A program made the translations under genes and the position numbers. Below, piece by piece: positions 1-30,205 of a DNA stretch of 64,000 nucleotides. Each line of letters begins with the position of its first letter. Positions within the stretch are counted from its first letter, which is position 1. The notes under the pieces are model-generated. The model was not told the origin of the DNA and searched no databases. It saw only the letters and a list, made by a program, of their open reading frames with translations. The stretch is from an uncultured Gemmatimonadaceae bacterium (GTDB lineage: Bacteria > Gemmatimonadota > Gemmatimonadetes > Gemmatimonadales > GWC2-71-9): NCBI GenBank assembly GCA_964557115.1, contig CAZKYO010000015.1:1063-65062 (forward strand), written 5' to 3'.

Positions 1-58
1 GCACCTCGTACTGCGTGCCGGTGCGGTTGTCGGTGATGGTGAGGGTGTCGCTGGCCAC
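1..58 (-). CDS. 5' end of a CDS running off the window; product not determinable (N-terminus VASDTLTITDNRTGTQYEV is weakly reminiscent of citrate synthase N-termini)
   Basis: GTG at 58 (minus strand), AAGGA Shine-Dalgarno (rc of 65-69) 6 nt upstream, GC-rich third positions. Only 19 codons are visible. Confidence 0.3.
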   Translation of the reverse strand, partial: MASDTLTITDNRTGTQYEV

Positions 59-169
59 GGCGAATCCTTGGGGTGCAGAAGGTGGCGAAGGCGCCCCGGC
101 GGGGCATCCCGGAAGATACACGGGACGCCGCCCCTTGCGGTGGGCGGCGGACGCGGCGTTCCGTTGGGG

Positions 170-1015
170 ATGACCAGCCCCGCCACCCTCGATCCCGCCG
201 CGCGCCGCCGCGGCTTCCTGCTCGGCGCCCCGGTGGGCGTCGCCCTGGCACATCGGCGCACTGACGCCTCCCCGCCGCCGGGACGACGCGACGCCGTCGT
301 CGCCCTCGGCGACGGATTGCTGGAGGAGTTGCTGTCCGGCGGGGTCGATCTCCGGCGCCTGGCGCGGCGGTGGGTCGCGTGGTGGGAGTCCGACGGCTTC
401 GGGGCCGATCCCGCGCTGGTGGAGGCGCTCACCTGGCTGCGCGACACTGATGCGCCGCCGTCCCGGCTCGCCTCCCGCGGCCCCGCGGCGATCGTCGCCG
501 CGCTGCCGGCGGCGCTCGCGTCGGCCTCGCCACGCACGATGACCTCCGGTGCCTTCCACACCGCGCGTCTCGTCGATCCCGATCCCGACGCGTGCCTCGC
601 CGCCGTGGCGGTCGTTGTCGCCGCGGCGCGGCTCCTCGACGGCAGCCGCGACGTCATCCCGGAAGTGCTCACCCTGCTGCGCACGAACGGGGCGGGGGGG
701 GCGCTGCTCGATCGCTTCGTCGCGATCGTGCGCGATCCGCGCGACGCGCCGCCGATTCCCGAAGGCCCCGCCGTCGCCGCCGTGGATGCCGCGGTGGCGG
801 TGCTCTGGACGGTGCACCACCAGGCCGATCCGCGCGTGGCGATCGAACGGCTGCTCACGCCGCCCGCACCGAACGCGGCCGTCGTCGCCACGGCGGCGTC
901 ACTCCTCGGGGCGCGCGACGGCGTCGACCGCTGGCCGCGCGAATGGCTTGCGGCCGCCGGGGAAGAGGCCGCCCTGCGCGAGGCCCTCGCGCGCCGACTC
1001 GACGCCAGCGACTGA
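170..1015 (+). CDS. Hypothetical protein, degenerate ADP-ribosylglycohydrolase-like
   Basis: ORF 68-1015 trimmed to the ATG at 170 (MTSPATLD). Ala/Leu-rich helical protein whose C-terminal AVVATAASLLGARDGVDRWPREW resembles the ARH GGDTDT-x-AIAGALLGA-x-G-x-IP-x-W segment, but without the acidic metal ligands. Confidence 0.4.
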   Translation: MTSPATLDPAARRRGFLLGAPVGVALAHRRTDASPPPGRRDAVVALGDGLLEELLSGGVDLRRLARRWVAWWESDGFGADPALVEALTWLRDTDAPPSRLASRGPAAIVAALPAALASASPRTMTSGAFHTARLVDPDPDACLAAVAVVVAAARLLDGSRDVIPEVLTLLRTNGAGGALLDRFVAIVRDPRDAPPIPEGPAVAAVDAAVAVLWTVHHQADPRVAIERLLTPPAPNAAVVATAASLLGARDGVDRWPREWLAAAGEEAALREALARRLDASD

Positions 1016-1121
1016 GGCGGCTGCGGCCCGATCGCGGTTCGCGGGCGATTCGGGACTCTCATTCCACAACCGGAAATGCCGAGGGCAGGGTTCGGCTTTC
1101 CGAGCCCAAGATGCGCTTGCA

Positions 1122-1135
1122 CTTGTGATCACAAG
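1122..1135. promoter_or_regulatory. Perfect 14-bp palindrome CTTGTGATCACAAG upstream of the multihaem cluster
   Basis: Seen directly in the AT-richer 270-nt intergenic region. Two further TGATC-containing dyads lie at 1138-1155 and 1180-1191. Confidence 0.35.
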
Positions 1136-1285
1136 CACTTGCGTGATCGGTCAAGAAAGGGGACAAAAACCGTCCCCCATTGATCACTCAACTGCTGCTC
1201 TGGCAAGGGATTGCGGACCACCACGGGGCAGCGTACCGTAGATCTACGGAGTCGCAATCTTCGTCGTTCGCCGAGGTGAACCGTT

Positions 1286-2836
1286 ATGCTCACGACCCGT
1301 TCTGCCCTTCGCGGCCTCCTCTTCCTCCTGCCGATCCTGGCCCTTTCCGGCTGCACCGACGAACAGATCGTCTATCGCGACCGGGAGCCCTACAATCAGC
1401 CTGATGCGGCGGCGGCCGGCTTCCTCGGCTACTACACCGCCTCGGCGAAGAAGACGACGTGCGGCAACTGCCACGTCGGGCACCAGTCCGACTGGGTCGG
1501 CACCAGGCACGCGGGAGCGTGGGAGGACCTCGAGGCCTCCGGTCACGCGAACGACACCTGCCGGCAGTGCCACAGCGTCAACGCCAAGGGCAACTCGGCC
1601 GACGGCACCGTGGGCTGGGACGCCACCAAGGACTCGGTGTACCGCGACGTGCAGTGCGAGTCCTGCCACGGCCCGGGCCTCGAGCACGTGAAGAACCCGG
1701 AGGTTGCGGCGAACATCCCGCTGGCCAACGCGAACATCGCCGACGTCGACGCCAGCTGCGCCAGCTGCCACAACGGGACGCACCATCCGTTCGTCGAGCA
1801 GTGGTCGCTCTCGCGGCACGCGCAGGTCGAGGAGCACACCGTCGGCAACGCCTCGTGTGCTGGCTGCCACGACGGCAAGGCATCGCTGCTGCGGTTCTCG
1901 GGGCAGGATCCGGTGTTTGCCGACAAGGGCGACACCGAGACCTGGCCGGTGACCTGCACCGTCTGCCACGACCCGCACAGCGACCGCAACGAGGGCCAGT
2001 TGCGCAAGCCGGTCAACTCGACCGATCCCGAAGAGAACCTCTGCATGCAGTGCCACATGCGGAAGATCGAGCCCAGCGGCGGCAATTCCCGCGGCAACGC
2101 CCCGCACGCCCCGCAGGGGGCCGTGGTGATCGGCGTCGCCGGATATCGCCCGGCCAACTTTGCCTCGCCCGACGACCAGATCATCTCGACGCACGGGTCA
2201 GGCGCGAATCCGCGACTGTGCGCCGGGTGCCACGTGAACAAGTTCAACGTGACCGATGCCGCCGGCGGCTTCGTCCTCACCTCGGTCGGCCACACCTTCG
2301 GCGCGCTGCCGTGCGTCGATGCCAACGGCGCGCCGATCGGCAACAGCGGCTGCGAGTACACCACGACCGCCCGGACCTTCGTCGGCTGCGTCAACTCGGG
2401 ATGCCATGCCTCGGGGCAGGTTGCGGCCAGCGCGCTCGTGTCGCTCCGGACCCAGATGTCGACCCTGGCCAACCAGCTCTGGGTCGACGGCGACCATGAC
2501 GAGACGATCGACGCCTTCCCGACCGACCAGGGGATGCTGGCGATCATCAAGCGGGACTTCCCGACGGCGATCAACGCCAGCGACAACGTGATCACGCCCG
2601 CCGACGGCGCCGAATTCAACGTGAAGCTGTTTGGCGAGGGTCGGTATGCCAATGGCGACAAGTCCCTCGGCGTCCACAACCCGTTCCTGGCGAAGGCGCT
2701 CCTCGCGGCGAACATCGCCGAGTTGCAGCAGACCTACGGCGTGTCGATCACCGAGCCGGGCGTGGCCGAGCTGGTGCAGTCGTCGATGCAGGCCGCGCGC
2801 GCGCGGTATCCGAACCTGCTGAGCCATCAGCGTTGA
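1286..2836 (+). CDS. Multihaem c-type cytochrome lipoprotein (8 CXXCH + 1 CX4CH)
   Basis: Signal peptide with lipobox LALSGC. Motifs CGNCH, CRQCH, CESCH, CASCH, CAGCH, CTVCH, CMQCH, CAGCH plus CVNSGCH, followed by a haem-free helical C-terminal domain. Confidence 0.85.
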   Translation: MLTTRSALRGLLFLLPILALSGCTDEQIVYRDREPYNQPDAAAAGFLGYYTASAKKTTCGNCHVGHQSDWVGTRHAGAWEDLEASGHANDTCRQCHSVNAKGNSADGTVGWDATKDSVYRDVQCESCHGPGLEHVKNPEVAANIPLANANIADVDASCASCHNGTHHPFVEQWSLSRHAQVEEHTVGNASCAGCHDGKASLLRFSGQDPVFADKGDTETWPVTCTVCHDPHSDRNEGQLRKPVNSTDPEENLCMQCHMRKIEPSGGNSRGNAPHAPQGAVVIGVAGYRPANFASPDDQIISTHGSGANPRLCAGCHVNKFNVTDAAGGFVLTSVGHTFGALPCVDANGAPIGNSGCEYTTTARTFVGCVNSGCHASGQVAASALVSLRTQMSTLANQLWVDGDHDETIDAFPTDQGMLAIIKRDFPTAINASDNVITPADGAEFNVKLFGEGRYANGDKSLGVHNPFLAKALLAANIAELQQTYGVSITEPGVAELVQSSMQAARARYPNLLSHQR

Positions 2837-2837
2837 G

Positions 2838-4853
2838 TTGGCCGTCCAGGCGCCGCTGATGGTCCTGCAGGGGAATCCCCCGGACACCCTCGTCGACTCG
2901 ACGCTGGCGAGGTTCCAGCAGGGAATTCCGGCCGAGGCCTCTCCCCTTCCGGGAGGGGTCTCGGCCGTGATGCGGGTGATCTTCAACGCCCCGCTCTGGG
3001 CCTGGTTGACCGCGATCGTCGTCGGGCTGGTCGTCGCCGTCATGGTGGTCCGGCTGGCCTGGACCAACCGGGTGCGACTGCGCGGGTGGGTCACCACGCG
3101 TGACCGGGGCGCCAGGTTCGCCATGCTGGGCGCGCTGGTGGTGGTGCTTGGCCTGGTCGGCTTCACCGGGCTGTCGGGCTGGAACTACATGCAGCACGAC
3201 AACGACTTCTGCGTCAGCTGCCACGTGATGCAGGGGCCGTGGAACAAGTTCGCGGCGGACGCGGGGAAGCACAGCGACCGCAAGTGCCACGACTGCCACC
3301 AGCAGTCGCTCTACGCCTCGGCGCGCCAGCTCGTCCTCTGGGTCGCCGATCGCCCGCAGGACATCCCCAAGCACGCGCCGGTCCCCAATGCGCGCTGCGA
3401 GTCGTGCCACAACACCAACGGCGACTCGCTCTGGACCCGGATCGAGGAGACGGCGGGCCACCGGACCCATCTCGAGTCCGATTCGCTCAAGGCCCAGGGG
3501 ATCACCTGCGTGACCTGCCACGGCGCCGAGGTGCACGAGTTCCTGCCGGCCAGCCGGACCTGCGGGCAGTCGGGTTGCCACGAGGACCTGCACATCACGC
3601 TTGGCAAGATGGCGAGCCAGACCACTCTGCACTGCAACCAGTGCCACCAGTTCACCGCCGAGGTGCCCCGCCTGGCCACGCGGGACTCGGCGGCCGGGAC
3701 GCTGCGACCGGGATCGCAGCAGTGCTTCGCCTGCCACCAGATGCGCGAGCGGCTGCCGGACTTCGACCTGAGTCGCGATCCCCACGGCGGCACCTGCGGG
3801 ACGTGCCACAATCCCCACACCCAGGACCGGCCCGAGGACGCGGCGAAGACCTGCACCGATGCCGGCTGCCACGCCGACTGGCGCAACGTGTTCTTCCACA
3901 CCGGGCCTGCGCACCGGAAACAGGGGGAGAACTGCCTCACCTGCCACGCGCCGCACGCCGCAAAGGTCGACGCGAGCGACTGCGTCGGCTGCCACAGCGC
4001 GGTGCGCGAACGGGGGATCCGCCAGCTCCGGCCACCGATGCCGTTCGACACCACGGCGGCGCTCCGGCAGGTCTCGGCGCGGCCCGCGGCGCACCAGCCG
4101 CCGACCGGGGCGGCGGTGCTCGACCCGGTCGCACCGGTGGAACCGCCGCCGCGCGGGAAGGGCGACGCGCCGCCCCCGGACGAGCGACCTCCGAGCGCGA
4201 CACACGTTCCGGCCTCCGTCCAGGTTCCACCCGCCGATTCCTTTCCGCACGCCCGTCACCGATCCCTCGCCTGCATCACCTGCCACGTCTCGCCCGGCTC
4301 CCAGTCGGGCCGCCTGACGTTCGAGCGGCCCCGCGGTTGCGACATCTGCCATCACCAGGCGGCCGCGACGAACAAGTGTGAGCGGTGCCACCGGACCGAC
4401 CGGCTGGCGGTGCCCATGGACGCCACGGTGCAGGTGACGGTCGCGGGACACGCGCCGCGCAGCCGGCCCGTCGTGTTCCGGCATCCGACCCACGATTCGC
4501 TCGCGTGCACCGAGTGTCACACCACGGCGGTCTCGCTCGAACCGAGCGCCGCGACCAAGGGCTGCACGGCGTGCCATGCGTCGCACCACACCGCGAATCG
4601 TCAGTGTGCGGCGTGCCACACCGGCGAGTCGCTGCGGACCGCCCACGCGGCGGACGTGCGCGCGAGCCACCAGCGCTGCGATGCTTGCCACGCACCGGCG
4701 ACGGTCGCCCTGCTGACGCCGGACCGGTCGTTCTGCGCGACATGCCACGCCGCGCAGCGTGCCGACCACTATTCGGCGAAGCAGTGCACCACCTGCCACT
4801 TCCTCGCCGACCCATCCGACTATCGGTCCCACCTGGTCGGCGGGAAGGGATGA
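2838..4853 (+). CDS. Membrane-anchored multihaem c-type cytochrome: NapC/NirT-like N-terminus fused to a long haem-rich domain (18 CXXCH + 2 CX4CH)
   Basis: TTG start 1 nt after the preceding stop. Two hydrophobic helices, then FCVSCH and CHDCH as in NapC/NirT/NrfH-type quinol dehydrogenases. Pro-rich linker (about nt 4027-4250), then 9 more CXXCH. Confidence 0.85.
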   Translation: MAVQAPLMVLQGNPPDTLVDSTLARFQQGIPAEASPLPGGVSAVMRVIFNAPLWAWLTAIVVGLVVAVMVVRLAWTNRVRLRGWVTTRDRGARFAMLGALVVVLGLVGFTGLSGWNYMQHDNDFCVSCHVMQGPWNKFAADAGKHSDRKCHDCHQQSLYASARQLVLWVADRPQDIPKHAPVPNARCESCHNTNGDSLWTRIEETAGHRTHLESDSLKAQGITCVTCHGAEVHEFLPASRTCGQSGCHEDLHITLGKMASQTTLHCNQCHQFTAEVPRLATRDSAAGTLRPGSQQCFACHQMRERLPDFDLSRDPHGGTCGTCHNPHTQDRPEDAAKTCTDAGCHADWRNVFFHTGPAHRKQGENCLTCHAPHAAKVDASDCVGCHSAVRERGIRQLRPPMPFDTTAALRQVSARPAAHQPPTGAAVLDPVAPVEPPPRGKGDAPPPDERPPSATHVPASVQVPPADSFPHARHRSLACITCHVSPGSQSGRLTFERPRGCDICHHQAAATNKCERCHRTDRLAVPMDATVQVTVAGHAPRSRPVVFRHPTHDSLACTECHTTAVSLEPSAATKGCTACHASHHTANRQCAACHTGESLRTAHAADVRASHQRCDACHAPATVALLTPDRSFCATCHAAQRADHYSAKQCTTCHFLADPSDYRSHLVGGKG

Positions 4854-6334
4854 TGCCCCGCCGGCTCGTGCTGCCGATCGTCCTCGCCGCCGCGATCACG
4901 GCACCGCTGGCGGCCCAGGGCTACCGCCTGCGCGTCGACAGCCGGATGCAGGGCATCTCGTGGCGCGGCCTCGAACTCGACAGCATCCCGTTCGCGAATG
5001 CCGTGGCGAATGGCCATGGCGGCTACGAGACGCCGGATGGGCTCGAGGCCCGTTGCCTCGGGGCGCAGTGCCTCTACTTCCGCGCCGGCGGCGTGCAGCG
5101 CGGCGTGCCCTGGGTGACGCAAGCCGACGCCTCGCTCTGGGGCTTCGGGTTGCCGGGCCTGAGCGCGCGGGTCAATGCCCGCCTCAGCGAGGACCTGGGC
5201 AAGGACGCCACGTGGCCCGGGAGCGAGCCGGCGTTGCAGCTCTACGAGGCGTACCTCGAGTACGCCACGCCGTCGCTCACCGCCCGCGCCGGCCGTCAGT
5301 TCCTCACGGGACGCCTCGGCAGTTACGGGCTCGACGGTGGGCGGGTCACCTATCGTCTCCCGTCGCTCGGGCTCGAGGCCGGCGCCTACCTGGGCTGGGG
5401 TCTCGCGAGGGGGACGGCCCTCGTCGTCACCGATCCGGCGCTCAACCCGCTCGATGACTTCCAGCCGCGGGATCGTCAGGTCGTGGCCGGGGCCGACGTC
5501 GCGTGGAACGGGCGGTTCGCCGACCTGCGGGCCGAGTATCGCCGAGAGGTCGACCCGGCAGTGCACTATTTCGTGTCCGAGCGCGCCTCGGCGGCGCTGG
5601 CCCTGCGGCCGATGTCCCGCCTCCGCCTGAGCGGGGGCGCGGTGTACGACATGGCGTTCGGCCAGTTCGGCTCGGCCGAGGCGGCGGCGTCGTGGGTATC
5701 GCGGCTGGTCACGGTGTCGGCGGGCGCGCGTCGTTACCGTCCGCTGTTCGACCTGTGGACCATCTGGGGCGCCTTCTCGCCGGCCGGCTACGAGGCGATC
5801 CACGGCGGCGTGGACGTGACGCCCGTGCGGTTCCTCGTGCTGCACGTGCGGGGCGAGAAGTACCGCTTCGACGACACCGAGACTTCCACGCCGCTGGTCG
5901 ACGTGGAGGACCATGGCTGGCGCTACGACGCGTCCGTGACCTGGATGCCCGATGCCCATTGGACCCTCATCGCGGGACACCAGGCCGAGTTCGGTCCCGG
6001 GGCCGCGTCGCTCGGCTACGACGGGCGGGTCATGTGGGAACCGACGGCGCGGCTGGCGCTCTCGGCGCACGCGTCGCGACTGCGGCGGCCGCTCGAGCTG
6101 CGGTTCAGCGACGCGACGCTGACGGCGTTCGGCGGCGACCTGACCCTTCGGCCGGATGATCGCTGGCGGTTCGATCTCGGTGCCTCGCGGGTGCGCGAGG
6201 ATCGCGACCGTCCCGACGCCGCGGCGATCGACTGGGACCAGTGGCGGGTCACGGCACGGATGAGCTGGGTGATCGGCTCATCCGCCGATCGGTTGCCGCT
6301 CCCGCGCGCCATCCCGACCGGGAGCAACCAGTGA
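4850..6334 (+). CDS. Haem-free secreted protein, predicted outer-membrane beta-barrel (porin-like)
   Basis: ATG at 4850 overlaps the upstream TGA (ATGA). Signal peptide MMPRRLVLPIVLAAAITAPLAAQG. Many alternating hydrophobic/polar stretches of strand length (VTYRLPSLGLEAGAYLGWGL, WRYDASVTWMPDAHWTLIAGHQAEF, RWRFDLGASRV). No Cys or haem motif. ORF 4385-6334 was trimmed. Confidence 0.55.
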   Translation: MMPRRLVLPIVLAAAITAPLAAQGYRLRVDSRMQGISWRGLELDSIPFANAVANGHGGYETPDGLEARCLGAQCLYFRAGGVQRGVPWVTQADASLWGFGLPGLSARVNARLSEDLGKDATWPGSEPALQLYEAYLEYATPSLTARAGRQFLTGRLGSYGLDGGRVTYRLPSLGLEAGAYLGWGLARGTALVVTDPALNPLDDFQPRDRQVVAGADVAWNGRFADLRAEYRREVDPAVHYFVSERASAALALRPMSRLRLSGGAVYDMAFGQFGSAEAAASWVSRLVTVSAGARRYRPLFDLWTIWGAFSPAGYEAIHGGVDVTPVRFLVLHVRGEKYRFDDTETSTPLVDVEDHGWRYDASVTWMPDAHWTLIAGHQAEFGPGAASLGYDGRVMWEPTARLALSAHASRLRRPLELRFSDATLTAFGGDLTLRPDDRWRFDLGASRVREDRDRPDAAAIDWDQWRVTARMSWVIGSSADRLPLPRAIPTGSNQ

Positions 6335-7752
6335 CCCGGTTCCTGCGCCGCGTGCTCCCGGTGCTTGTCGTCGGCCTCGTCGCCTGGGGCGTCGCACAGG
6401 CGCGCAATCCCGCGCCGGTGTTCGACCACGCCAAGCACGTGCGGCTCTTCCCGGCATCGTGCGGCGCCTGCCATCTCGGTGCCGAACAGGACGGGGCACC
6501 GATCTACCCGACGGTGACGTCCTGCGCCGCCTGCCATGACGGCGTGGCCAAGTCCGCGGCCGAATGGCAACCACCCACCGCGAGCAAGCCGACCAACCTC
6601 CGCTTCACCCACGCCGCACATCGACGGGAGACCGGCGACACGGTCCGCTGTGCGAGCTGCCATGCGGGGACCGGGGCGCCCGGATCGATCCATCGAGACG
6701 ATCCGGAGCAGTGTGTCTCGTGTCACGAGCCCGGAAAGCGACACCTGACCGCCTCGGATCGCCAATGTGCCCGCTGCCACGTCCCGCTGGCGCGCGCCAC
6801 GGCGCTGTCGACCGACCGGATCGCCGCGTTCCCGACGCCGCCCAACCACCAGGCCACCGATTTCGCCACCGGTGGACACGGTACCCTGGCCGCGCAGGGG
6901 AACGGCGTGGCCGCGAGCTGTGCGACTTGCCACGCGCGGACCTTCTGCGCGGCCTGCCACGTCAACGCCCCCGAGACCGCCGCGATCCAGGCGCTGATGC
7001 CCGACGCGCGCTCGCTCGCGATCAAGGCGGAGCTCAAGGCGCCGGCCACTCACGCGAGCCCGACCTTCCTCGATGCGCACGGCAGGCAGGCCGCCGGTGA
7101 TCCGGCGCGGTGCGCGACCTGTCACGCCCAGCCGAGTTGCACCGCCTGTCACGTCGCGCCCGGCCCCAAGGCGGTGCGCGCGATGGCAAGGCCCGGCGAG
7201 GGGCGGGGCACCGGTGCGGTCGTCACGCGACACGCGCCCGCGACCCACACGGCGGCCTTCACCGAGGGGCACGGACCCGACGCCGCGGCGTCCCCCCGCA
7301 CCTGCGAGACGTGCCATCGCCGCGACCAGTGCCTCACCTGTCACCGCGGGTCGCCGACCACGGGGGCCAACTACCACCCGGCGAACTTCCTGACGCGCCA
7401 CCCGGCTGCCACCTACGCGCGCCAGACGAGTTGTGCCGACTGCCACAACGTGCAGCAGTTCTGCGTCACCTGCCACGCCTCGGCGGGTCTCAACGCCCAC
7501 AACACGCTGCGGGCGGGACCCTACCACGATGCCAAGGGTGCCTTCGTGCTGAACCACGGCCAGGCGGCGCGGCAGTCGCTCGAGTCGTGCGTCTCCTGCC
7601 ACGTCGAGCGCGACTGCACCTCCTGCCACTCGGCGCTCGGCGGACGGCGCTTCTCGCCGCATGGCCCGGGCTTCGACGCCGACCGGCTCCGTCGCCGGAA
7701 CCCCGAGATGTGCATCGCCTGCCACGGCCGGGCGATCCCGGGAGCGAGCTGA
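6331..7752 (+). CDS. Multihaem c-type cytochrome (16 CXXCH, five doubled CXXCH units)
   Basis: GTG at 6331 overlaps the upstream TGA (GTGA). N-terminal signal/anchor VTRFLRRVLPVLVVGLVAWGVAQA. 16 CXXCH, including 5 pairs spaced CXXCH-x4/5-CXXCH, each preceded by an H-x-n-C c7/c3-like context. Confidence 0.85.
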   Translation: MTRFLRRVLPVLVVGLVAWGVAQARNPAPVFDHAKHVRLFPASCGACHLGAEQDGAPIYPTVTSCAACHDGVAKSAAEWQPPTASKPTNLRFTHAAHRRETGDTVRCASCHAGTGAPGSIHRDDPEQCVSCHEPGKRHLTASDRQCARCHVPLARATALSTDRIAAFPTPPNHQATDFATGGHGTLAAQGNGVAASCATCHARTFCAACHVNAPETAAIQALMPDARSLAIKAELKAPATHASPTFLDAHGRQAAGDPARCATCHAQPSCTACHVAPGPKAVRAMARPGEGRGTGAVVTRHAPATHTAAFTEGHGPDAAASPRTCETCHRRDQCLTCHRGSPTTGANYHPANFLTRHPAATYARQTSCADCHNVQQFCVTCHASAGLNAHNTLRAGPYHDAKGAFVLNHGQAARQSLESCVSCHVERDCTSCHSALGGRRFSPHGPGFDADRLRRRNPEMCIACHGRAIPGAS

Positions 7753-7870
7753 GAAGAGCGAACAGAGAAGAGAGAACGGAGAACCGAGGTGGGGACGCGT
7801 GCACCGGGACCGGATGGTCGCGCGCCGCTGTCCTCTCTCTTCTCTCTTCTCTCTTCTCTTTTCCGTGTTC
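7751..7870. repeat. Heptad-periodic GA-rich arm / CT-rich arm imperfect inverted repeat between convergent genes
   Basis: GAGAAGA GCGAACA GAGAAGA GAGAACG GAGAACC ... TCTCTTC x3 TCTTTTC CGTGTTC. The arms are partly complementary. Confidence 0.7.
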
Positions 7871-8793
7871 TAGTGTCGCTTGTAGGTCTTCTCGCCCGCG
7901 GGGATGGCGAACGCGAACCGGTTCTCTGGTGGCGCCAGCGGGCAGGGTGACGCGTCGGTGAACGCGCAGTCGGGGTTGCGGGCGCGGTTGAAGTCCACCT
8001 CCGTCTGGCCATCCGCGCCGCGCGGCAGGTCGACATCGAGGAACCGGGCCGACGGGTAGCTCCCGGCGCCGCTGGTCGCGTCATGGATCACCACGAGCAC
8101 GTCCGTGGCGTCCTTGCCCTTCGCGTACGCCACCAGTTCGCGGTCCTCGCCCCGGATCCGGACGGCGATGCGACCCGCCACCTGTCGGGGCAGCTCGAAG
8201 CCCCGCACCGTCGGCGTGTGGGTCCACTCACCGTCGGCGGGGATGAACCGGGCGTCGAACCGCCACGCCGTGTCCACCGGCCACCGCTCGATCCCGCCGA
8301 ACGCGGTGCGCGCCTCGGCCAAGGTGTCCACGATCCAGATGGTGATGGCGCCCTCGGCCCATCGACCGCTGAACCGGACCGGCCCGAGCCAGACCCGCGC
8401 CCCGGGCAGGCCGAATTGATCGCGCAGCGCGAGGATCCGGTTGGCCGCGGCCGTGGAGTCGCCTGCCCAGGCGGCCGCACCCTCCGGCACGAAGGTCAGC
8501 GTGTCGCCGCGTGCCACGAGTTGTCCCGCCCGCGAGGCGACGCGGGGCCCGGGGATCACGCACGGAAGGGAATCCGCGCCGCCGATCGCGACGGGCAGCC
8601 GCGCTTCCTCGAGGCGGCAGAGGCCGGTCTGTGCCAGCGGTCCGTTCGCCGAGGGCACCGATGCATCGCGACGGGCGAGCCAGTCGTCGAGCCGGGCTCG
8701 GTAGGCCACGGCGTCGAGCGGTGGCCGCGGCGGCGTGGCGGCGTCGCCGGCACAGGCAGCGAGCAGCAGCAGGAGCGGGAGGCGGCGGGTCAC
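7870..8793 (-). CDS. DUF1684 family lipoprotein
   Basis: Lipobox LLLLAACAG. C-terminal NPDCAFTDASPCPLAPPENRFAFAIPAGEKTYK matches the conserved DUF1684 C-terminal signature (C-x-n-CP-x-P-x-N-x-L-x-IxAGEK). Confidence 0.7.
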   Translation of the reverse strand: MTRRLPLLLLLAACAGDAATPPRPPLDAVAYRARLDDWLARRDASVPSANGPLAQTGLCRLEEARLPVAIGGADSLPCVIPGPRVASRAGQLVARGDTLTFVPEGAAAWAGDSTAAANRILALRDQFGLPGARVWLGPVRFSGRWAEGAITIWIVDTLAEARTAFGGIERWPVDTAWRFDARFIPADGEWTHTPTVRGFELPRQVAGRIAVRIRGEDRELVAYAKGKDATDVLVVIHDATSGAGSYPSARFLDVDLPRGADGQTEVDFNRARNPDCAFTDASPCPLAPPENRFAFAIPAGEKTYKRH

Positions 8794-8906
8794 CCAGAAA
8801 GGATGGGCGGGGAGGGGCGGTCACGCCACCTCTTGCCATCGCGGCAAGGGAGCCCCACTATCGACTCCCCGATCACGGTTCCGCCTCCCCGCGCCTCGAG
8901 GACCGA

Positions 8907-10121
8907 ATGTCCCTCACCACCAAGGTGTTGCTCGGCCTCGTCGCCGGCCTGGCCTTCGGGATCGCGCTCGCCGCCGTGCTGCCGCCCGAGTGGCAGGTGC
9001 TCGCCGCCTGGATCGAGCCGATCGGCGCGCTGTGGACCCGGGCGCTGCAGATGGTCGTGCTGCCGCTGGTGGTGACGCTGCTCTTCACCGGCGTGAGCCA
9101 GGGCGGGCAGGGGCTCGGGCCCCTCGGCCTCAAGGGGGTGGTGCTCTTCGTGGTGATGCTCGCGGTGGTCGCGGCGGCGACGCTCGCGATCGCCCCGCCG
9201 ATCTTCGCCCGGATCCACATCGATCCCGTGACCGCCGCCGCGCTGCGCGAGGGGAGCACGGCGCCGGCGACCGCCCTGCCGAGCTTCCGCGACTGGCTGG
9301 TCGAGCTGATGCCGAGGAACCTCGTGGCTGCTGCGGCCGACGGCGCGATGCTGCCGATCATCGTCGCCACGCTGATGTTCGGCGCCGCCGCCACGCGGCT
9401 CCCGGAGGAGACGCGCCGACGCCTCGAGCGAGGCGCCGAGGCGATCGGATCGGTGACGATCATGGTCGTCCGGGGGATCCTGGCGCTGGCACCGATCGGC
9501 GTCTTCGCGCTCGCCGTGCCGCTGGCGCTGCGGCTCGGCACCACGGCGCTCGGCGCGGTGGCGGCGTACGTGATCGTCACCGCGGCGATCACCCTGGTTG
9601 CGATCCTGCTGTGCTACCCGCTCGCGGCGGTGCGCGGCGTCCGGATGCGCGACATGGCGCGGGCGCTCGCGCCGGCCCAGGGGATCGCCGTCTCGGCGCG
9701 CTCCTCCCTGGCGGCGCTGCCGGCGCTGATCGACGGCGCGGCGGGACTCGGGCTGTCGGAGCGCATGACCGGCTTCTTCCTGCCGTTCTCGGCCTCGCTG
9801 TTCCGGCTGGGCGGGGCGGTCGCGCTGCCGGTCGGCGTGCTCTTCATCGCCTCGCTCTACGGCGTGCAACTGGAGACCACCCAGTTCCTCACCATCGGCA
9901 TCACGTCGGTCCTGCTCACGTTCAGCGTGCCGGGGATCCCGGGCGGCTCGATCCTCATCATGGCGCCCGTGCTGCTGGCGGCGCACCTGCCGGTCGAGGG
10001 GATCGGCATCCTCCTCGGCGTCGACACGATCCCCGACATGTTCCGCACGACGGCGAACGTCACGGGGACGATGACCGCGACCGTCGTGCTGCGCGACGAC
10101 GTGCGGGGCCAGCTTGCGTAG
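8907..10121 (+). CDS. Dicarboxylate/amino acid:cation symporter (DAACS family)
   Basis: ORF 8511-10121 trimmed to the ATG at 8907 (MSLTTKVLLGLVAGLAFG). Polytopic membrane protein with typical DAACS segments (SSLAALPA, IPGGSILIMAPVL, DMFRTTANVTG). Confidence 0.85.
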   Translation: MSLTTKVLLGLVAGLAFGIALAAVLPPEWQVLAAWIEPIGALWTRALQMVVLPLVVTLLFTGVSQGGQGLGPLGLKGVVLFVVMLAVVAAATLAIAPPIFARIHIDPVTAAALREGSTAPATALPSFRDWLVELMPRNLVAAAADGAMLPIIVATLMFGAAATRLPEETRRRLERGAEAIGSVTIMVVRGILALAPIGVFALAVPLALRLGTTALGAVAAYVIVTAAITLVAILLCYPLAAVRGVRMRDMARALAPAQGIAVSARSSLAALPALIDGAAGLGLSERMTGFFLPFSASLFRLGGAVALPVGVLFIASLYGVQLETTQFLTIGITSVLLTFSVPGIPGGSILIMAPVLLAAHLPVEGIGILLGVDTIPDMFRTTANVTGTMTATVVLRDDVRGQLA

Positions 10122-10325: not shown

Positions 10326-10661
10326 ATGAAGCGATTCGCCGTCGTGCTGGCGATGTCCCTGGTCCAACTGCAGCCGCTCGCGGCCGCGGCGGCCTGCCAG
10401 CAGCATCATGCGGCGGCGGCATCGCACCACTGCACCTCCCCGGCGGACCAGCACGGCATGGCCGGCGACTCGCACCACGACCACTCGATGGCCGACGAGT
10501 GCCAGGCGTCCCAGGCATGTGCCCCGACCGTCCCTGCCGTGACCTCCGGCACCACCCCGGTGACCACCGTGGCGGAGCGGGTCGAGGCGCCGAGCCTGGC
10601 CGGCCCCGACGTGCGCGGCAGCCTCCTCGCGGTGCTTGCCTTCCACCCTCCCAAGCCCTGA
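10326..10661 (+). CDS. Small secreted His/Cys-rich protein (putative metal-binding), first gene of the RND metal-efflux operon
   Basis: Signal-like N-terminus MKRFAVVLAMSLVQLQPLAAAAA, then HHAAAASHHCTSPADQHGMAGDSHHDHSMADECQASQAC. Sits directly upstream of and co-directional with the cusCBA-like genes. Confidence 0.5.
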   Translation: MKRFAVVLAMSLVQLQPLAAAAACQQHHAAAASHHCTSPADQHGMAGDSHHDHSMADECQASQACAPTVPAVTSGTTPVTTVAERVEAPSLAGPDVRGSLLAVLAFHPPKP

Positions 10662-10751
10662 CCTCCATCCAGTCCTGAACGTGACACGTCCGTCGAGTTG
10701 ATCGGCGGGCATCACCTGACGCATCGCGGGCCACGCCCGCGGGATGAGGTC

Positions 10752-12035
10752 ATGACACAACACCTCTTCACCGGTCGGTTCCGGTGGGCCGTGCCGCTTG
10801 TGGCACTGCTCGGCGGCAGCGCACCGGTATCCCTCGCGGCGCAGGTTGCGCCGGACACCCTGCGGCTGGCCGACGCGATCGCGGCCGCCCGCGCCGACAA
10901 CCCGGCGCACCTGGCGGCGCGACTGCGGGCCGACGCGGCGGCGGAGGCGATCGCCCCGGCGGGGGCGATGCCCGATCCGGAGCTCTCGCTGGGGTTGATG
11001 AACCGTCCGATCGACGGCTTCGGCAGCGGCGAGCCGATGACGATGAACCAGGTCGGCTTGGCGCAGCTCTTCCCGTGGCCCGGCAAGCGCGCGGCGGCGG
11101 GAGACCGCGCCCGGTGGATGGCGACTTCGGCGAGTCTCACCGCCGACGAGATCGCGGCCGACGTGGCGGGGCGCCTCGCGGTGCAGTACTACGAGGCCGC
11201 CTGGCTCGATCGCGCCATTGCCATCTCGACCGACACCCGGCGACTGCTGCGCGAACTGGTGCGCGTGGCCGAGGCGCGTTACGCGGTCGGTGAGGTGCCG
11301 CAGCAGGACGTATTCCGTTCCCAGGTTGCCGTGGCGCAGCTCGGCGAACAGCTCGAGATGCTGGCGGCCGAACGCGACGCCGCCGCCGCCCGGCTCAACG
11401 CCCTGATGGGACGCGATCCCTTCCTCGCGGTGGCGGCACTGGAACTCCCCTCGCTGCCGAGCGGCCCGGCGCAGGGCGACAGCGCGATCGTCGGCGCGGT
11501 GGCCGACCGGCCGGCGATCCGGGCCGCCGAGGCGATGGCCGAGGCGGCCACTGCCGGCGCGCGCGAGGCCGACCGGGCCTTCTATCCCGACCTCCGGCTC
11601 GGCGTCGTGTATGGCCAGCGTCCCCAGTACGGCGACATGGCCACGCTCATGCTCGGGGTGCAGTTGCCGCTGCACACGGGGTCGCGCCAGGCCCCTCAAC
11701 GCGATGCGATGCTGGCGATGGCGGAGGCGGCGCGAGCCGATGCCACCGACCTCCGGCAGGCGACGCTCGCGGAGATCCGTGCCGCGCGCGCCGAGACGCT
11801 GCGCGCCCGGGAGCGGGTGTCGCTCTACGACACCGGCATCCTGCCGCAGGCGCGCGCCGCCGTCGACGCCTCGCTCGCGGCCTACCGGGTCGGGCGGGTC
11901 GACTTCGCCACGGTGCTCGACAACGAACTCACCCTCAATCGCTACACCATCGACCGGGCGCGTTTGGTGGCGCGCCATCACCAGGCGATGGCCCGCATCG
12001 CCGCCCTGCTTGGCAGGACGGGAGGTGACGCATGA
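10752..12035 (+). CDS. TolC-family outer membrane efflux protein (CusC/CzcC-like)
   Basis: ORF trimmed to the ATG at 10752 (MTQHLFTGRF, signal peptide ending LAAQ). Two-repeat helical OMF pattern. ATGA overlap with the following adaptor gene. Confidence 0.8.
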   Translation: MTQHLFTGRFRWAVPLVALLGGSAPVSLAAQVAPDTLRLADAIAAARADNPAHLAARLRADAAAEAIAPAGAMPDPELSLGLMNRPIDGFGSGEPMTMNQVGLAQLFPWPGKRAAAGDRARWMATSASLTADEIAADVAGRLAVQYYEAAWLDRAIAISTDTRRLLRELVRVAEARYAVGEVPQQDVFRSQVAVAQLGEQLEMLAAERDAAAARLNALMGRDPFLAVAALELPSLPSGPAQGDSAIVGAVADRPAIRAAEAMAEAATAGAREADRAFYPDLRLGVVYGQRPQYGDMATLMLGVQLPLHTGSRQAPQRDAMLAMAEAARADATDLRQATLAEIRAARAETLRARERVSLYDTGILPQARAAVDASLAAYRVGRVDFATVLDNELTLNRYTIDRARLVARHHQAMARIAALLGRTGGDA

Positions 12036-13276
12036 CCGCTCGGATCCTGATGCCGCTCCTCGCGGCGATCGCCGTGACCCTCGCCGCGTGCGGCAAGGAC
12101 GACGCCGGGTCGCCGATGCCCGGGATGACGGCGGCGGAACACGCCATGATGTCGAGTGGCGGGATGTCGGGGATGACCGACAGCACCGGCATGACGATGC
12201 GCCAGGCGGTGCACCTCACGCCGGCGCAGGCCCAGGCGCTCGGGGTGGTCTACACCACCGTCGGCCGCGAGACGCTCACCAGGACGGTGCGCACCGTCGG
12301 CACGATCCAGCCGTCAGAGGATCGCGTGGTTGACGTGACGCCGAAGATCGACGGCTTTGTCGAGCGGCTGTTCGTCAACACCACCGGCGCCAGCGTGCGG
12401 CGGGGCGACCCGATCCTGTCGCTCTACTCGCCGGCACTCGTCGCGGCGCAGGAGGAGTACCTCACCGCGAAGCGCCTGGTCGCGCAACTCCCCGTCGACG
12501 CCGGGGAGCCACTGGAGGCGGCGCGCTCGACACTCCGCGCCGCCGGCGACCGGCTGCGCTACTGGGACATTCCCGAGGCCCAGATCGCCCGGCTCGAGGC
12601 GAGCGGCCAGGCCACCCGCACGCTGGCGCTGGTCGCGCCGGTGTCGGGCGTGGTGCTGGTCAAGGACGTGATCGAGGGCCAGCGCGTGATGCCTGGGCAG
12701 CGGCTTTACCAGGTCGCCGACCTGAGCGTGGTGTGGGTGGAGGGGGAGGTGTTCGAGCAGGACCTGGCGCTGGTGCGCGAGGGGATGCAGGCGCACATCG
12801 AGATCGCCGCCCGGCCGGGTGAGCACCTGATGGGGCGGGTGTCGTTCGTGTACCCCACCGTCGATCCGACCAGCCGGACGGCGCGGATCCGGATCACGAT
12901 GCCGAACCCCGGCATGCAGCTCAAGCCGGGGATGTTCGCGACAATCTTCCTCGACGCGGTGGTGGGGCGCGACGTGGTGGTGGTGCCGCGCTCCGCGGTG
13001 GTGGTGACGGGCACCCGCAACCTGGTGTTCGTGCGCGACTCCAGCGGGGTGCTCCAGCCGCGCGAGGTGGTGCTCGGGGCACGGACCGCCGACCAGGTCG
13101 AGGTGCTGTCGGGGCTCGCAGCCGGCGAAGAGATCGTCGGCTCGGCCAACTTCCTGATCGACGCCGAGTCGCGGCTCGGCGGTGGCGGCGGCACGATGCC
13201 CGGGATGCAGCACGGCGCGATCGACCAGCCGATGCCCGCTGGCGACACCACGGGAGGTCACCGTCATGATCCGTGA
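12032..13276 (+). CDS. RND efflux periplasmic adaptor (CusB/CzcB family) with Met-rich N-terminus
   Basis: Lipobox TLAACG. Met-rich segment MPGMTAAEHAMMSSGGMSGMTDSTGMTM. Membrane-fusion-protein core (LVAPVSGVVL..., VVVPRSAVV). Confidence 0.85.
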   Translation: MTARILMPLLAAIAVTLAACGKDDAGSPMPGMTAAEHAMMSSGGMSGMTDSTGMTMRQAVHLTPAQAQALGVVYTTVGRETLTRTVRTVGTIQPSEDRVVDVTPKIDGFVERLFVNTTGASVRRGDPILSLYSPALVAAQEEYLTAKRLVAQLPVDAGEPLEAARSTLRAAGDRLRYWDIPEAQIARLEASGQATRTLALVAPVSGVVLVKDVIEGQRVMPGQRLYQVADLSVVWVEGEVFEQDLALVREGMQAHIEIAARPGEHLMGRVSFVYPTVDPTSRTARIRITMPNPGMQLKPGMFATIFLDAVVGRDVVVVPRSAVVVTGTRNLVFVRDSSGVLQPREVVLGARTADQVEVLSGLAAGEEIVGSANFLIDAESRLGGGGGTMPGMQHGAIDQPMPAGDTTGGHRHDP

Positions 13277-16200
13277 CCTGATCTCCTGGTCGGTGCGCAA
13301 CCGCGCCCTGGTGCTCTTCGCGACGGCGGGGATCATCGGGGCCGGCCTCTGGTCGGCGCGCACCACGCCGCTCGACGCGATCCCCGACCTGTCCGACGTG
13401 CAGGTGATCGTCCAGACCGACTACGCTGACCAGGCGCCGCAGATCGTCGAGGACCAGGTGACCTACCCGGTCACCTCAGAGATGCTCAAGGTGCCGGGCG
13501 CACGGGTCGTGCGCGGCTACTCGTTCTTCGGGCTAAGCCTGGTCTACGTGATCTTCGAGGACGGGACCGACCTCTACTGGGCGCGCTCGCGGGTGCTGGA
13601 GTACCTCAACGGCATCCGGCGCCAGTTGCCGGCCGGCGCCGAGCCGACCCTTGGTCCCGACGCAACCGGGGTGGGCTGGGTGTTCGAGTACACGCTGGAG
13701 TCGGATTCGCTCGACCTGGCCGAGCTGCGCAGCCTGCAGGACTGGAACATCCGCTACCAGCTCACGGCGGTGCCGGGGGTCTCCGAGGTGGCGTCGCTGG
13801 GCGGCTTCGTGAAGCAGTACCAGGTCGAGGTCGATCCGGAGCGGCTCCGGGCATTCGACATCCCGGTGACCCGGGTGGCCGCCGCGATCGGCGACCACAA
13901 CATGGACATCGGCGCCCGGGTGCTGGAGATGGGCGGCCGGGAGTACATGATCCGCGGCCTCGGCTACCTCGAGGGGGTGGCCGACATCGAGAACGTCTCG
14001 GTCGGGACCGCCGACAACGGCACCCCGATCCGGGTGGCCGACGTGGCGACGGTGCAGGTCGGCCCGGCGCCGCGGCGCGGCGCGGCCGACCTCGACGGCA
14101 AGGGCGAGGTGGTGGCCGGCATCGTGGTGATGCGCTACGGCTCCGACGCCCTGGCCACCATCGAGGCGGTCAAGACGCGCCTCAAGGCGGTTGAGGCGTC
14201 GCTGCCGCCCGGCGTGCGGCTGCGGGTCGCCTACGACCGCAGCGACCTGATCCACCGGGCGATCGACACGCTGCGCGACAAGCTGCTGGAGGAGTCGCTG
14301 ATCGTGGCGCTGGTGGCGATCCTCTTCCTGCTCCACGTCCGCTCGGCGCTGGTCGCGATCGTGGTGCTCCCGATCGGGATCCTCCTCGCCTTCATCGTGA
14401 TGCGATTGCTCGGCATCGATGCCAATATCATGAGTCTCGGCGGGATCGCGATCGCGATCGGCGCCATGGTCGACGGCGCCATCGTGATGATCGAGAACAT
14501 GCACAAGCATCTCGAACGCGCCGGCCCCGAGGTCGACCGCTGGGAGGTGGTGCTCCGGAGCGCCCGGCAAGTGGGCCCGCCGCTCTTCTACTCGCTGCTG
14601 ATCATCACCTGCAGCTTCCTGCCGGTCTTCGCCCTGGAGGCGCAGGAGGGACGGCTCTTCAAGCCGCTGGCGTTCACCAAGACGTTCGCGATGGCCGCCG
14701 CGGCGCTGCTGTCGGTGACGCTGGTGCCGGTGCTGATGGGCTACCTGATCCGGGGCCGGATCCGGTCGGAACGGGAGAACCCGGTCAACCGCTGGCTGCA
14801 GTGGCTCTACCGGCCGGTGATCGACTTCACCCTGCGCCGCCCGTGGCTGGTGGTGGCGGGTGGCGTGGCGGTGCTGGCGGTGACGGTGCTGCCCTGGCGG
14901 CGGCTCGGCAGCGAGTTCATGCCGCAACTGCACGAGGGATCGATCCTCTTCATGCCGACCACGGTGCCGGGGGTGTCGATCGCCGAGGCGAACGCGATCA
15001 TGCGGCACCAGGACAGCATGCTCGCGTCGTTCCCCGAGGTCGAGCGGGTGCTCGGCAAGACCGGGCGCGCGGCCACCGCGACCGACCCAGCGCCGCTCGA
15101 CATGTACGAGACCACGCTCACCCTGGCGCCGGAGTCGAAGTGGCGGCCGGGAATGACCTACGACCGCCTGCTCGCCGAGCTCGACAGCGCGGTGCGGCTG
15201 CCCGGCGTCACGAATGCCTGGACGATGCCGATCAAGGGACGGATCGACATGCTCGCCACCGGGATCCGGACCGCGGTCGGGATCAAGATCTTCGGCCCCG
15301 ATCTCGACACGCTGCAGGCACTGGGTGAGCGGGTCGAGCGGCTGATGCAGGGCGTGCCCGGGACCCGGAGTGCCTTCGCCGAGCGGGGGGTGTCGGGCTA
15401 CTACGTGGACATCGACATCGACCGCGCCGAGGCGGCACGCTACGGGCTCAACGTCGGCGAGATCCACGACGCGATCATGGCCACGGTCGGCGGGATGAAC
15501 GCGGCCACGACCGTCGAGCGGCGGGAGCGCTATCGGGTGAACGTGCGCTACCCGCGGGAGCTGCGCGACGACGTCCAGAAGCTGCGCGAGGTGGTGCTGC
15601 CGACCCGGAGCGGGGCCCAGATTCCGCTCGGCCAGGTCGCCACGGTCGCGGTCCGTCAGGGGCCGATGGCGGTGAAGACCGAGAACGCCTTCCCGGTCAC
15701 CACGGTGTTCGTGGACATCGACGCCTCCGATGTGGGCGGCTACGTGCGCACGGCCCGGCAGGTCGTCAATGCCGGTCTGGTGCTGCCCACGGGCTATTCG
15801 CTGGTCTGGAGCGGCCAGTACGAGTTCATGCAGCGGGTCGGCAGCCGGCTGCGGCTGGTGGTGCCGGTCACGCTGGCGATCATCTTCCTGCTCCTCTACC
15901 TCAATTTCCGCGGGGTGACCGAGTCGCTGATCGTGATGCTCTCGGTGCCGTTCGCGCTGGTCGGCGGGGTGTGGTACCTCTGGCTCGCGGGGTACAACAC
16001 CAGCGTGGCGGTGTGGGTCGGCTTCATCGCGCTGGCAGGCGTCGCGGCGGAGACGGGCGTGGTGATGCTGATCTACCTCGACGAGGCGTTCGCACGACGC
16101 AAGGCCGAGGGGCTGATGCGCGGCCCGCCCGACGTGGCGGAGGCGGTCCGCTCCGGCGCGGTCGACCGGCTGCGGCCCAAGGTGATGACCGTCGTGGCGA

Positions 16201-30144: not shown

Positions 30145-30159
30145 GTTTGCGCCCGGCAA

Positions 30160-30187
30160 GGGAGTCGCGGCCTCGGCTCCCTCTTTT
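30160..30187 (+). terminator. Putative intrinsic terminator after the methyltransferase gene
   Basis: GGGAGTCG-loop-CGGCTCCC stem followed by TCTTTT. Confidence 0.45.
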
Positions 30188-30205
30188 CGCGGGACACGCG
30201 CGTTC

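Follow-up and report, generated by a model that had tools for sequence, protein, structure and literature searches.

Can a member of the Gemmatimonadota, a phylum for which we know of no established mineral or electrode respiration, pass electrons between its quinone pool and the outside of the cell? The question is raised by a 64,000-nucleotide (nt) stretch of DNA from an uncultured Gemmatimonadaceae bacterium (contig CAZKYO010000015.1), referred to here over its whole length as the window, which has a G+C content of ~72%. Four co-directional, overlapping genes at positions 1286-7752, g1 to g4, encode three multihaem cytochromes and a predicted outer-membrane beta-barrel. We propose that this operon wires the inner-membrane quinone pool to the cell exterior and is a porin-cytochrome conduit of new composition, a reading to which we assign a probability of roughly 0.68. 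The evidence for such a conduit is entirely computational.

A four-gene operon with 45 haem motifs

A listing of open reading frames (ORFs) combined with a motif count gave 42 CXXCH and 3 CX4CH motifs, 45 haem motifs in all, between 1286 and 7752. This reproduces exactly, per-gene counts included, what an earlier note on this DNA had reported, and the packed, co-directional arrangement that it described was recovered as well, with gene junctions that read TGAgTTG, ATGATG, and GTGA in order. All four genes lie on the + strand. The first, g1 (1286-2836), encodes a nine-haem lipoprotein cytochrome of 516 amino acids (aa) with 8 CXXCH and 1 CX4CH; its lipobox, LALSGC with Cys23, was found as the note had claimed. 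The second, g2 (2838-4853), encodes a predicted inner-membrane cytochrome with 20 haem motifs (18 CXXCH and 2 CX4CH), 671 aa long from a TTG start and with an alternative start at 2859. It is followed by g3 (4850-6334), a predicted outer-membrane beta-barrel of 494 aa with ~24 strands, a signal peptide at residues 1-22, and no haem motif, and by g4 (6331-7752), a secreted cytochrome of 473 aa with a signal peptide and 16 CXXCH. These four genes form a single operon.

Two of the gene starts differ in the public gene calls, which begin g2 at Met8 (ATG at 2859, 664 aa) and g3 at its second ATG (4853, 493 aa). The 1-nt gap reported between g1 and g2 (2836/2838) therefore depends on the chosen start: it holds from the TTG but not under the public start. 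Because g2 is conserved from about residue 36, translation begins upstream of both of its membrane helices in any case.

Across the three cytochromes, 90 of 93 cysteines lie inside haem motifs, and a search of all six frames found only one other ORF in the 64-kb window with two or more CXXCH. The haem-motif density of g1, g2, and g4 is therefore far beyond chance and is not a composition effect.

g3 as a large outer-membrane barrel of an unclassified family

The AlphaFold2 (AF2) model of g3, built from 54 sequences, is all-beta with 24 DSSP strand elements (predicted local distance difference test [pLDDT] score 83, predicted template-modelling [pTM] score 0.74); the strand count and loop orientation are taken from the DSSP string alone. 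Searched with Foldseek against the PDB, the model gave 360 matches at E<=1e-3, and the displayed top 50 were all outer-membrane or S-layer barrels. The best of these was the 24-strand FimD usher pore, with a query-normalized TM-score (TMq) of 0.51; MtrB stood at rank 11 (TMq 0.39), and substrate channels, namely Occ/OpdK porins, AlgE, and chitoporin, were also among the matches. Hydrophobicity alternates along the strands of g3 more strongly than in shuffled sequences (2.06 vs 1.40+/-0.21, z ~3). Together with the weak matches of some relatives to a generic barrel family, described below, the model and its fold matches bear out the beta-barrel character that had been suggested for g3.

Sequence searches gave far less. 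The window protein has no Pfam match (none to PF11854 at E<=1), only a negligible Opr porin match in NCBIfam (E 0.14), and nothing meaningful in the PDB by phmmer. Among its 54 relatives, 14 weakly match PF13505 (OMP_b-brl), a few others match domains of unknown function, and none matches PF11854 (MtrB_PioB). More than 1,100 homologues were found in a set of 5.8 billion proteins, nearly all of them from Gemmatimonadota and the named ones all "hypothetical". An exhaustive profile search returned 510 clusters at 50% identity, 183 of them at E<=1e-30, and one distant cluster that was looked up includes members from Candidatus Eisenbacteria. Judged by these searches, g3 would represent a new family, absent from Pfam and NCBIfam.

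The signal peptide, the lack of haem motifs, and the alternating strands described for g3 in the earlier note were all upheld, but its description as cysteine-free was not: C69 and C74 are invariant in the 54 relatives and probably form a loop disulfide. Two further stretches stand out. The conserved loop motif NPLDDFQPRDRQ (5444-5479, + strand; residues 199-210) is among the most conserved parts of the family and falls in a low-confidence loop of the model (188-204). The hallmark motif FDLWTIWGAFSP (5747-5782, + strand; residues 300-311) is invariant or nearly so at residues 300 and 302-311, falls in another low-confidence loop (301-309), and is kept in both of the distant (~200-bit) members that were read, P0473 and P0491. 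Strand parity suggests that both loops may be extracellular or may fold into the lumen.

An invariant pair of barrel and 16-haem cytochrome

To place the operon among genomes, a scan was made of one genome per GTDB species with the loop motif NPLDDFQPRDRQ as a search pattern. A g3 relative is encoded in 430 species genomes, and the best 80 loci from these genomes, 78 of them labelled Gemmatimonadota, were analysed for synteny. Where downstream sequence was available, g4 lay directly 3' of g3 in every case (78/78 loci). The complete order g1-g2-g3-g4 was found by tblastn in 64 of the 80 loci, the remainder being mostly cut by contig ends and four having variant upstream genes. The association of g3 with cytochromes is thus a conserved one. 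Haem counts and inter-haem spacings are likewise conserved across homologues, haem 11-12 of g2 excepted.

In the four variant loci (L020, L024, L053, and L074), g3-g4 is kept and g1-g2 is replaced upstream. Since the variants keep g3-g4 beside other modules, the barrel and the 16-haem cytochrome form an invariant core that has repeatedly been joined to quinone-reactive modules. Locus L020 was the one scanned against Pfam. In its variant cluster (1-9434), the genes ahead of g3-g4 encode a g1-like protein, a Rieske-like ORF (a weak match), and a petB-type cytochrome b (PF00033, 164 bits), as well as a 9-haem cytochrome, a NapC/NirT-type 22-haem cytochrome (PF03264, 41 bits), and an 11-haem cytochrome; a b561/HydC-type cytochrome b (PF01292, 31 bits) is also present. 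A cluster of the L020 type may be a larger, bc-complex-coupled conduit.

Two apparent barrel-cytochrome fusions, P0404 and P0411, were considered as Rosetta-stone evidence for the pairing and rejected as read-through or frameshift artefacts of adjacent g3-like and g4-like genes, because the g4-like part still has a signal peptide of its own and the sequence of P0404 is garbled. As P0411 is from a lineage of lower GC content, the g3-g4 pairing reaches beyond the high-GC clade.

The product of g4 begins with an ActA/Hmc-like part and continues with five paired CXXCH-x4/5-CXXCH repeats. Its N-terminal ~150 residues resemble ActA of Alternative Complex III and HmcA (profile against PDB: ActA 6lod, 1.7e-8; HmcA, 1.9e-6). 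The protein also scores 50.8 bits, against a cut-off of 30, with PF22113, the pentahaem domain II/IV of MtrC/MtrF; it carries this segment but is not a lipoprotein, and although it is the only protein of the cluster that matches the OmcA/MtrC model TIGR03507, it does so at E 0.56. Its 16 haems are kept in 56 of 64 homologues, a shorter subclade has 14, and the spacings are fixed. Through the GTGA overlap g4 is translationally coupled to g3, and by analogy with known porin-cytochrome pairs we propose g4 as the wire that would thread the barrel. Both mature g4 and the periplasmic part of g2 have ~28 residues per haem, a wire-like density.

g2 joins a quinol-dehydrogenase-like start to 20 haem motifs

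The two N-terminal transmembrane helices ascribed to g2 in the earlier note were found by hydropathy at residues 53-71 and 94-112. They delimit a predicted membrane hairpin (2994-3173, + strand) with an Arg-rich loop at residues 74-92 (5 K/R vs 1 D/E) and with P52, W54, R78, and W84 invariant. By the positive-inside rule, the Arg-rich loop would be cytoplasmic and the haem domain therefore periplasmic, an N-out hairpin.

Helix 2 and haem sites 1-2 make up a NapC/NirT/NrfH-like quinol-dehydrogenase segment (3123-3302, + strand; residues 96-155), whose first motif reads CVSCHVM. Over residues 96-155, PF03264 (NapC/NirT) scores 26.7 bits against a gathering cut-off of 24.1, the match spanning profile positions 10-73 of 174. 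The NrfH model TIGR03153 gives E 3.6e-9 at 36.8 bits, below its cut-off of 134.2, and a profile of 34 relatives matches NrfH (2J7A chain C) over helix 2 and haems 1-2 with E 2.7e-6. These matches support the earlier suggestion that the inner-membrane quinol module is fused to the wire. Met131, which follows haem 1, is invariant among relatives with at least 50% identity; an NrfH-type Met ligand was considered as a signature of the g2 family and dropped as proof, as the position is Met or Phe in a wider set.

Beyond this segment, the C-terminal part of g2 resembles the periplasmic wires GSU1996, NhcA (nine-haem cytochrome c), and Hmc in profile searches against the PDB. The 18+2 haem count is kept in 59 of 62 homologues. 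The spacing from haem 11 to haem 12 varies from 62 to 127 aa, and all 18 other spacings are nearly fixed. In the window protein the variable stretch is a Pro-rich tether (4008-4247, + strand; residues 391-470, 25% Pro), which divides the haems into an 11-haem module and a 9-haem module. At its start lies an invariant motif, PPxPFDTTxAL (residues 399-408, window 4032-4061), with P400, F403, D404, T405, and A408 as the invariant residues; a partner might dock on this peptide.

g1 resembles the surface reductases OcwA and OmhA

The lipobox of g1 is conserved among its homologues, and the 8+1 haem count is kept in 32 of 33 full-length ones; haems are less densely packed here, at 57 residues per haem. 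A phmmer search of the PDB matched g1 to OcwA (6I5B, E 5.8e-8), and a profile of 60 sequences matched OmhA (6QVM, 4.7e-13), OcwA (6I5B, 1.9e-11), MtrA (6R2Q chain A, 5.3e-9), and cytochrome c554 (1.9e-5), with only marginal matches to octahaem nitrite reductase (ONR) and hydroxylamine oxidoreductase (HAO) (E 1e-3 to 0.06). The AF2 model (pLDDT 78.6) has long C-terminal helices that form a helical bundle at residues 377-507, where pLDDT exceeds 90, and the G-V-H-N motif of this bundle aligns with OcwA and OmhA in the shared form G-[VI]-H-N. OcwA is a nine-haem cell-surface terminal reductase of Thermincola potens with a C-terminal three-helix bundle, and it also reduces nitrite and hydroxylamine in vitro (PMC6703420). 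OmhA is an S-layer undecahaem Fe(III) reductase of Carboxydothermus ferrireducens (10.1101/2022.02.24.481543; PMC7829351). These similarities place g1 in the wider NrfA/c554/MccA/OcwA superfamily, nearest to OcwA and OmhA among its solved members, and we propose that it may act as a terminal reductase or oxidase, possibly exposed at the surface.

The MtrA/DmsE model TIGR03508 scores 52 bits with g1 and 18.8 bits with g2, against a cut-off of 192.2, and no protein of the cluster has 10 haems. Since g1 fails this model in spite of its profile match, its relationship to MtrA is distant. The NrfB and NrfH equivalogs were likewise far below their NCBIfam cut-offs. In OcwA and OmhA, His-His pairs flank two five-coordinate haems (10.1101/2022.02.24.481543). 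The H165-H166 pair of g1 is kept and aligns to GAHH of OmhA; at the second position g1 has H274-A275 where OcwA has HH.

A proposed route for electrons and its alternatives

How might the four proteins work together? In the route that we propose, g2 would sit in the inner membrane by its two-helix anchor and exchange electrons with (mena)quinol at the NrfH/NapC-like first-haem site. Its 11-haem module and then its tethered 9-haem module would carry the electrons over the periplasm, g4, lodged in the g3 barrel in the way that MtrA is in MtrB, would take them across the outer membrane, and g1, as the last module, would meet the substrate, be it mineral Fe/Mn oxides, humics, shuttles, or electrodes. 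The cytochrome inside the barrel would be g4 or, alternatively, the C-terminal module of g2. A bolder form of this proposal is a shuttle-free, whole-envelope wire of 45 haems, in which the quinol dehydrogenase is fused to the wire, the tethered nine-haem module is a "swinging arm" that docks on the outer-membrane module, and the Trp/Phe-rich loops NPLDDFQPRDRQ and FDLWTIWGAFSP of g3 grip or gate g4. We regard this version as speculative and rather doubtful; if true, it would open to Gemmatimonadales, an abundant soil order, and to relatives such as Candidatus Eisenbacteria a way of respiring minerals, humics, or electrodes that is specific to the lineage.

Several points weigh against the conduit as proposed. 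The best fold match of g3 is a pilus usher rather than MtrB and its TM-scores are moderate (0.4-0.5), so that only a large outer-membrane barrel is established, and the insertion of a cytochrome into it would be by analogy. The position of Met131 in g2 is Met in 35 and Phe in 28 (~45%) of the wider set of 63. For g1, the AF2 model gave no Foldseek match in the PDB with E<0.6, which is typical of coil-rich multihaem folds, and profile-sequence searches were therefore used in place of the structural one. A lipoprotein such as g1 can equally face the periplasm, its superfamily includes enzymes (OcwA itself reducing nitrite and hydroxylamine), the kept H165-H166 pair may point to a substrate-binding haem, and its position beside the NrfH-like g2 recalls the nrfHA pair. 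Finally, a host with Alternative Complex III is probably an aerobe, and we know of no metal respiration in this host.

The last of these points about g1 lead to an alternative in which the operon encodes a periplasmic respiratory or detoxifying enzyme, g1 being catalytic on the periplasm-facing leaflet, g2 its quinol dehydrogenase, g4 a store or wire, and g3 a substrate porin for a soluble oxyanion or metal chelate. The membership of g1 in a superfamily with NrfA, c554, MccA, and OcwA, its weaker ONR and HAO matches, the in vitro activities of OcwA (PMC6703420), the one HH pair, the nrfA-nrfH-like adjacency of g1 and g2, and the Occ/OpdK, AlgE, and chitoporin channels among the fold matches of g3 would all fit. 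A motif scan of g1, g2, and g4, though, found no CXXCK, CX15CH, or other long-spacer catalytic-haem motif. Invariant His/Met outside the motifs were counted as candidate ligands: g1 offers 8-9 of them to its 9 haems, g2 21+2 to its 20, and g4 14-16 to its 16. That is enough for a sixth ligand on every haem, and in g1 the conserved histidines suffice for nine six-coordinate haems. It is because of these ligands and the missing CXXCK that we favour a wire over an enzyme, even if the case against a catalytic-haem signature is tempered by the superfamily of g1 and its remaining HH pair. A further 36 haems in two wire-like proteins are also far above the need of an enzyme, the unit that is invariant across variants is g3-g4 and not g1-g2, and the ~24 strands of g3 are well above those of substrate porins with 16-18. 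On balance we consider the enzyme improbable. More improbable still, and in our view very unlikely, is that g3 is mainly an export or assembly device, usher-like or Slam-like, which places g1 or g4 on the surface while electrons cross by another route or by diffusible shuttles. FimD as the top fold match is in keeping with it, and MtrB is also needed for the correct localisation of surface cytochromes. Yet g3 is a barrel only, 494 aa long against ~800 aa for FimD, with no usher plug and no N-terminal or C-terminal usher domains; the cluster contains no chaperone gene; and a strict tie to a haem-dense cytochrome is what MtrAB-type pairs show.

If the operon is a conduit, in which direction would electrons flow? 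The sequence does not fix the direction, and we lean towards outward flow, with quinol oxidation and extracellular reduction, because menaquinol oxidation is the usual role of NrfH/NapC/CymA-type modules and the solved proteins nearest to g1 are reductases. The same hardware might also run inward, drawing electrons from Fe(II), Mn(II), reduced humics, or a cathode outside the cell and delivering them to the quinone pool or to periplasmic carriers that feed Alternative Complex III or oxidases, an option that we take seriously but judge unlikely. Porin-cytochrome systems do run both ways in nature, as in MtoAB/PioAB (PMC5566968), NapC/CymA-type modules have been proposed to reverse in Fe(II) oxidisers (PMC6295460), and an aerobic chain that could serve as the sink is offered by the Alternative Complex III encoded in the window. 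Variant clusters with a bc-type cytochrome b point the same way: such co-occurrence has been likened to PCC4-type clusters (PMC13264449), which were proposed for Fe(II) oxidisers (PMC5566968). On the other side, ImcH and NrfH-type quinol dehydrogenases are mostly tied to outward flow (PMC6295460), and the structures closest to g1 belong to reductases. The genes around the cluster gave no carbon-fixation or Cyc2 context. Moreover, the quinone of Gemmatimonas is menaquinone, for which reduction by Fe(II) is energetically unfavourable.

Comparison with known systems

The earlier note had described the locus as an analogous conduit rather than a known system, and comparison with the described families agrees: membership tests for MtrCAB, the Geobacter porin-cytochrome (Pcc) clusters, and PCC3/4 all failed. 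The cluster is not a member of these families, and its proposed function is like theirs. With MtrCAB of Shewanella and with MtoAB/PioAB it shares a lipoprotein multihaem cytochrome and the pairing of a large barrel gene with one for a haem-dense periplasmic cytochrome, and the likeness to MtrCAB extends to MtrB among the fold matches of g3, MtrA among the profile matches of g1, and PF22113 in g4. In contrast to these systems, neither g3 nor any of its 54 relatives has PF11854, and MtrB is a generic fold match only. No protein of the cluster reaches the DmsE/MtrA or OmcA/MtrC cut-offs of NCBIfam, haem counts are 9, 20, and 16 as opposed to 10 and 10, and the barrel has ~24 strands vs 26 in MtrB. 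Unlike CymA, which stands alone as a protein, the quinol dehydrogenase here belongs to the operon and forms one chain with a 20-haem wire, and the lipoprotein g1 has an OcwA/NrfA-type fold, unlike the staggered-cross fold of MtrC.

The Geobacter OmaB-OmbB-OmcB (Pcc) and Ext clusters also bring together a porin-like protein and two multihaem cytochromes, one periplasmic and the other a lipoprotein. Their haem counts differ (8 and 12 in Pcc, compared with 9 in the lipoprotein, 20, and 16 here), as does the barrel, OmbB being predicted to have ~20 strands vs ~24 in g3, a comparison made by description. The inner-membrane component is neither fused nor co-encoded in the Geobacter cluster, and the NCBIfam model of the GSU2203 family gave 45 bits here against a cut-off of 325. 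PCC3 and PCC4 (PMC5566968) are candidate clusters from genome mining in which a porin and repetitive cytochromes very rich in haem are encoded together with a redox partner in the inner membrane; they have been proposed to span the whole envelope. Their defining five-helix membrane protein with two HX13H motifs (b-haems) is absent from the four-gene operon, whose membrane module is instead the c-type, two-helix NrfH/NapC-like fusion g2. PCC3 porins have up to 42 strands and PCC3 cytochromes have median haem counts of 21-34, and the hosts of PCC3/PCC4 are mostly Proteobacteria. The Gemmatimonadales variant clusters with cytochrome b, for their part, recall the petB/petC-associated porin-cytochrome clusters of PMC13264449.

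Individual modules have relatives of their own. Like OcwA and OmhA, g1 has its haems, nine of them, in ~520 aa and a C-terminal helical bundle with G-[VI]-H-N. The similarity is patchy and low, the hosts of OcwA and OmhA are Gram-positive with the protein in the wall or S-layer, g1 is a diderm lipoprotein encoded beside a barrel, and g1 has His-Ala where OcwA has its second catalytic His-His pair. In g2, as in NrfH, NapC, CymA, and ImcH, a transmembrane helix runs straight into haem sites 1-2. The first motif has the NrfH form CXXCHXM in the window protein, with Phe in place of the Met in ~45% of the wider family. Like ImcH, g2 has extra N-terminal helices and more than 4 haems (PMC6295460). 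It departs from these proteins in matching only about the first third of the NapC/NirT model, in having 20 haems vs 4 in NrfH and CymA and 7 in ImcH, in having two helices vs one in NrfH and three in ImcH, and in lacking the CX3CH motif described for ImcH (PMC6295460).

Full-text literature searches returned no paper on this cluster in Gemmatimonadota, only generic porin-cytochrome and multihaem surveys, with partial coverage of the subscription literature, so an earlier description is possible. A 2018 survey listed two ImcH homologues and one CbcL homologue in Gemmatimonadota, and a 2026 survey of metagenome-assembled genomes described generic porin-cytochrome cluster groups, some with NapC/NirT-like or petBC genes.

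Implications for the Gemmatimonadota

Porin-cytochrome clusters as such are now regularly found by genome mining. What is new here, with in silico support, is the barrel family, the combination of modules, and the tethered fusion of a quinol dehydrogenase with a wire. Gemmatimonadota are among the most abundant phyla of soil and sludge, and the few members in culture are considered aerobic heterotrophs or phototrophs. If the conduit is real, its presence in at least 430 species-level genomes would put the phylum among the organisms with a part in the cycling of Fe, Mn, and humics, and perhaps among the electroactive ones. The conduit would also be a fourth or fifth independent solution for moving electrons across the outer membrane, by way of a new barrel family, and would offer a natural example of a quinol dehydrogenase fused to a periplasmic wire. 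The product of g1 would then be a Gram-negative lipoprotein version of the OcwA/OmhA reductases, which have so far been characterised only in Gram-positive thermophiles. FeGenie-type tools probably miss the cluster at present; the hallmark motifs of g3 and the fixed 9/20/16 haem pattern are ready markers for metagenome surveys.

Upstream elements, flanking genes, and the rest of the window

An inverted repeat, ACCGTAgatcTACGG (also given as ACCGTAGATCTACGG), lies at 1235-1249 on the + strand, 37-51 nt upstream of the g1 start, and is the sole exact site in the window. Some related loci share the pattern: in 12 of 52, CGTA-N2-6-TACG occurs between -200 and +20 relative to the start of g1, compared with a background of 0.003 per 220 nt. 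The repeat is probably a binding site for a regulator (a candidate operator) or an RNA hairpin in the 5' untranslated region. At the other end of the operon, a weak terminator-like hairpin with a T-rich tail follows g4 at 7812-7843 (+ strand). No other such site occurs on either strand between 900 and 8000; a single one is no more than expected by chance, and the same scan found no terminator-like site inside the operon.

Two other candidate regulatory sites for g1 were rejected. One was an FNR/CRP-type box: none was found upstream of g1, and the nearest match lies inside g4. The FNR-like pattern TTGATNNNNATCAA, allowing up to 2 mismatches, does occur 15 times in the window vs 2.7+/-1.6 in shuffles, none of the matches being upstream of g1; most contain GATC and are intragenic, and the excess may be a codon or composition effect rather than a regulon. 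The other was a perfect 12-bp palindrome, TTGTGATCACAA, at 1123-1134, flanked by GCACTTG direct repeats and a further GTGATC (1113-1150), which is not conserved in related loci.

The operon is bordered by an ADP-ribosylglycohydrolase gene (68-1015, + strand), a neighbour also present in near-identical contigs, and by a gene for a DUF1684 protein (7870-8793, - strand); neither has an evident tie to the cytochromes. Further into the window, an Alternative Complex III-like run (29951-35226, + strand) encodes an ActA-like cytochrome with five CXXCH, a 1011-aa ActB-like molybdopterin/4Fe-4S fusion, and an NrfD-family ActC-like membrane protein, and indicates an aerobic-type respiratory chain in the same organism. 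Between these lies a heavy-metal-type resistance-nodulation-division (RND) efflux operon (10326-16388, + strand) with an outer-membrane factor (PF02321), a CusB/HlyD-type adaptor (PF16576, 260 bits), and an AcrB/CusA-type pump (PF00873, 760 bits). Ahead of these efflux genes, a small His/Met-rich secreted ORF (10326-10661) without a Pfam match could, by composition only, be a metal-binding periplasmic protein.

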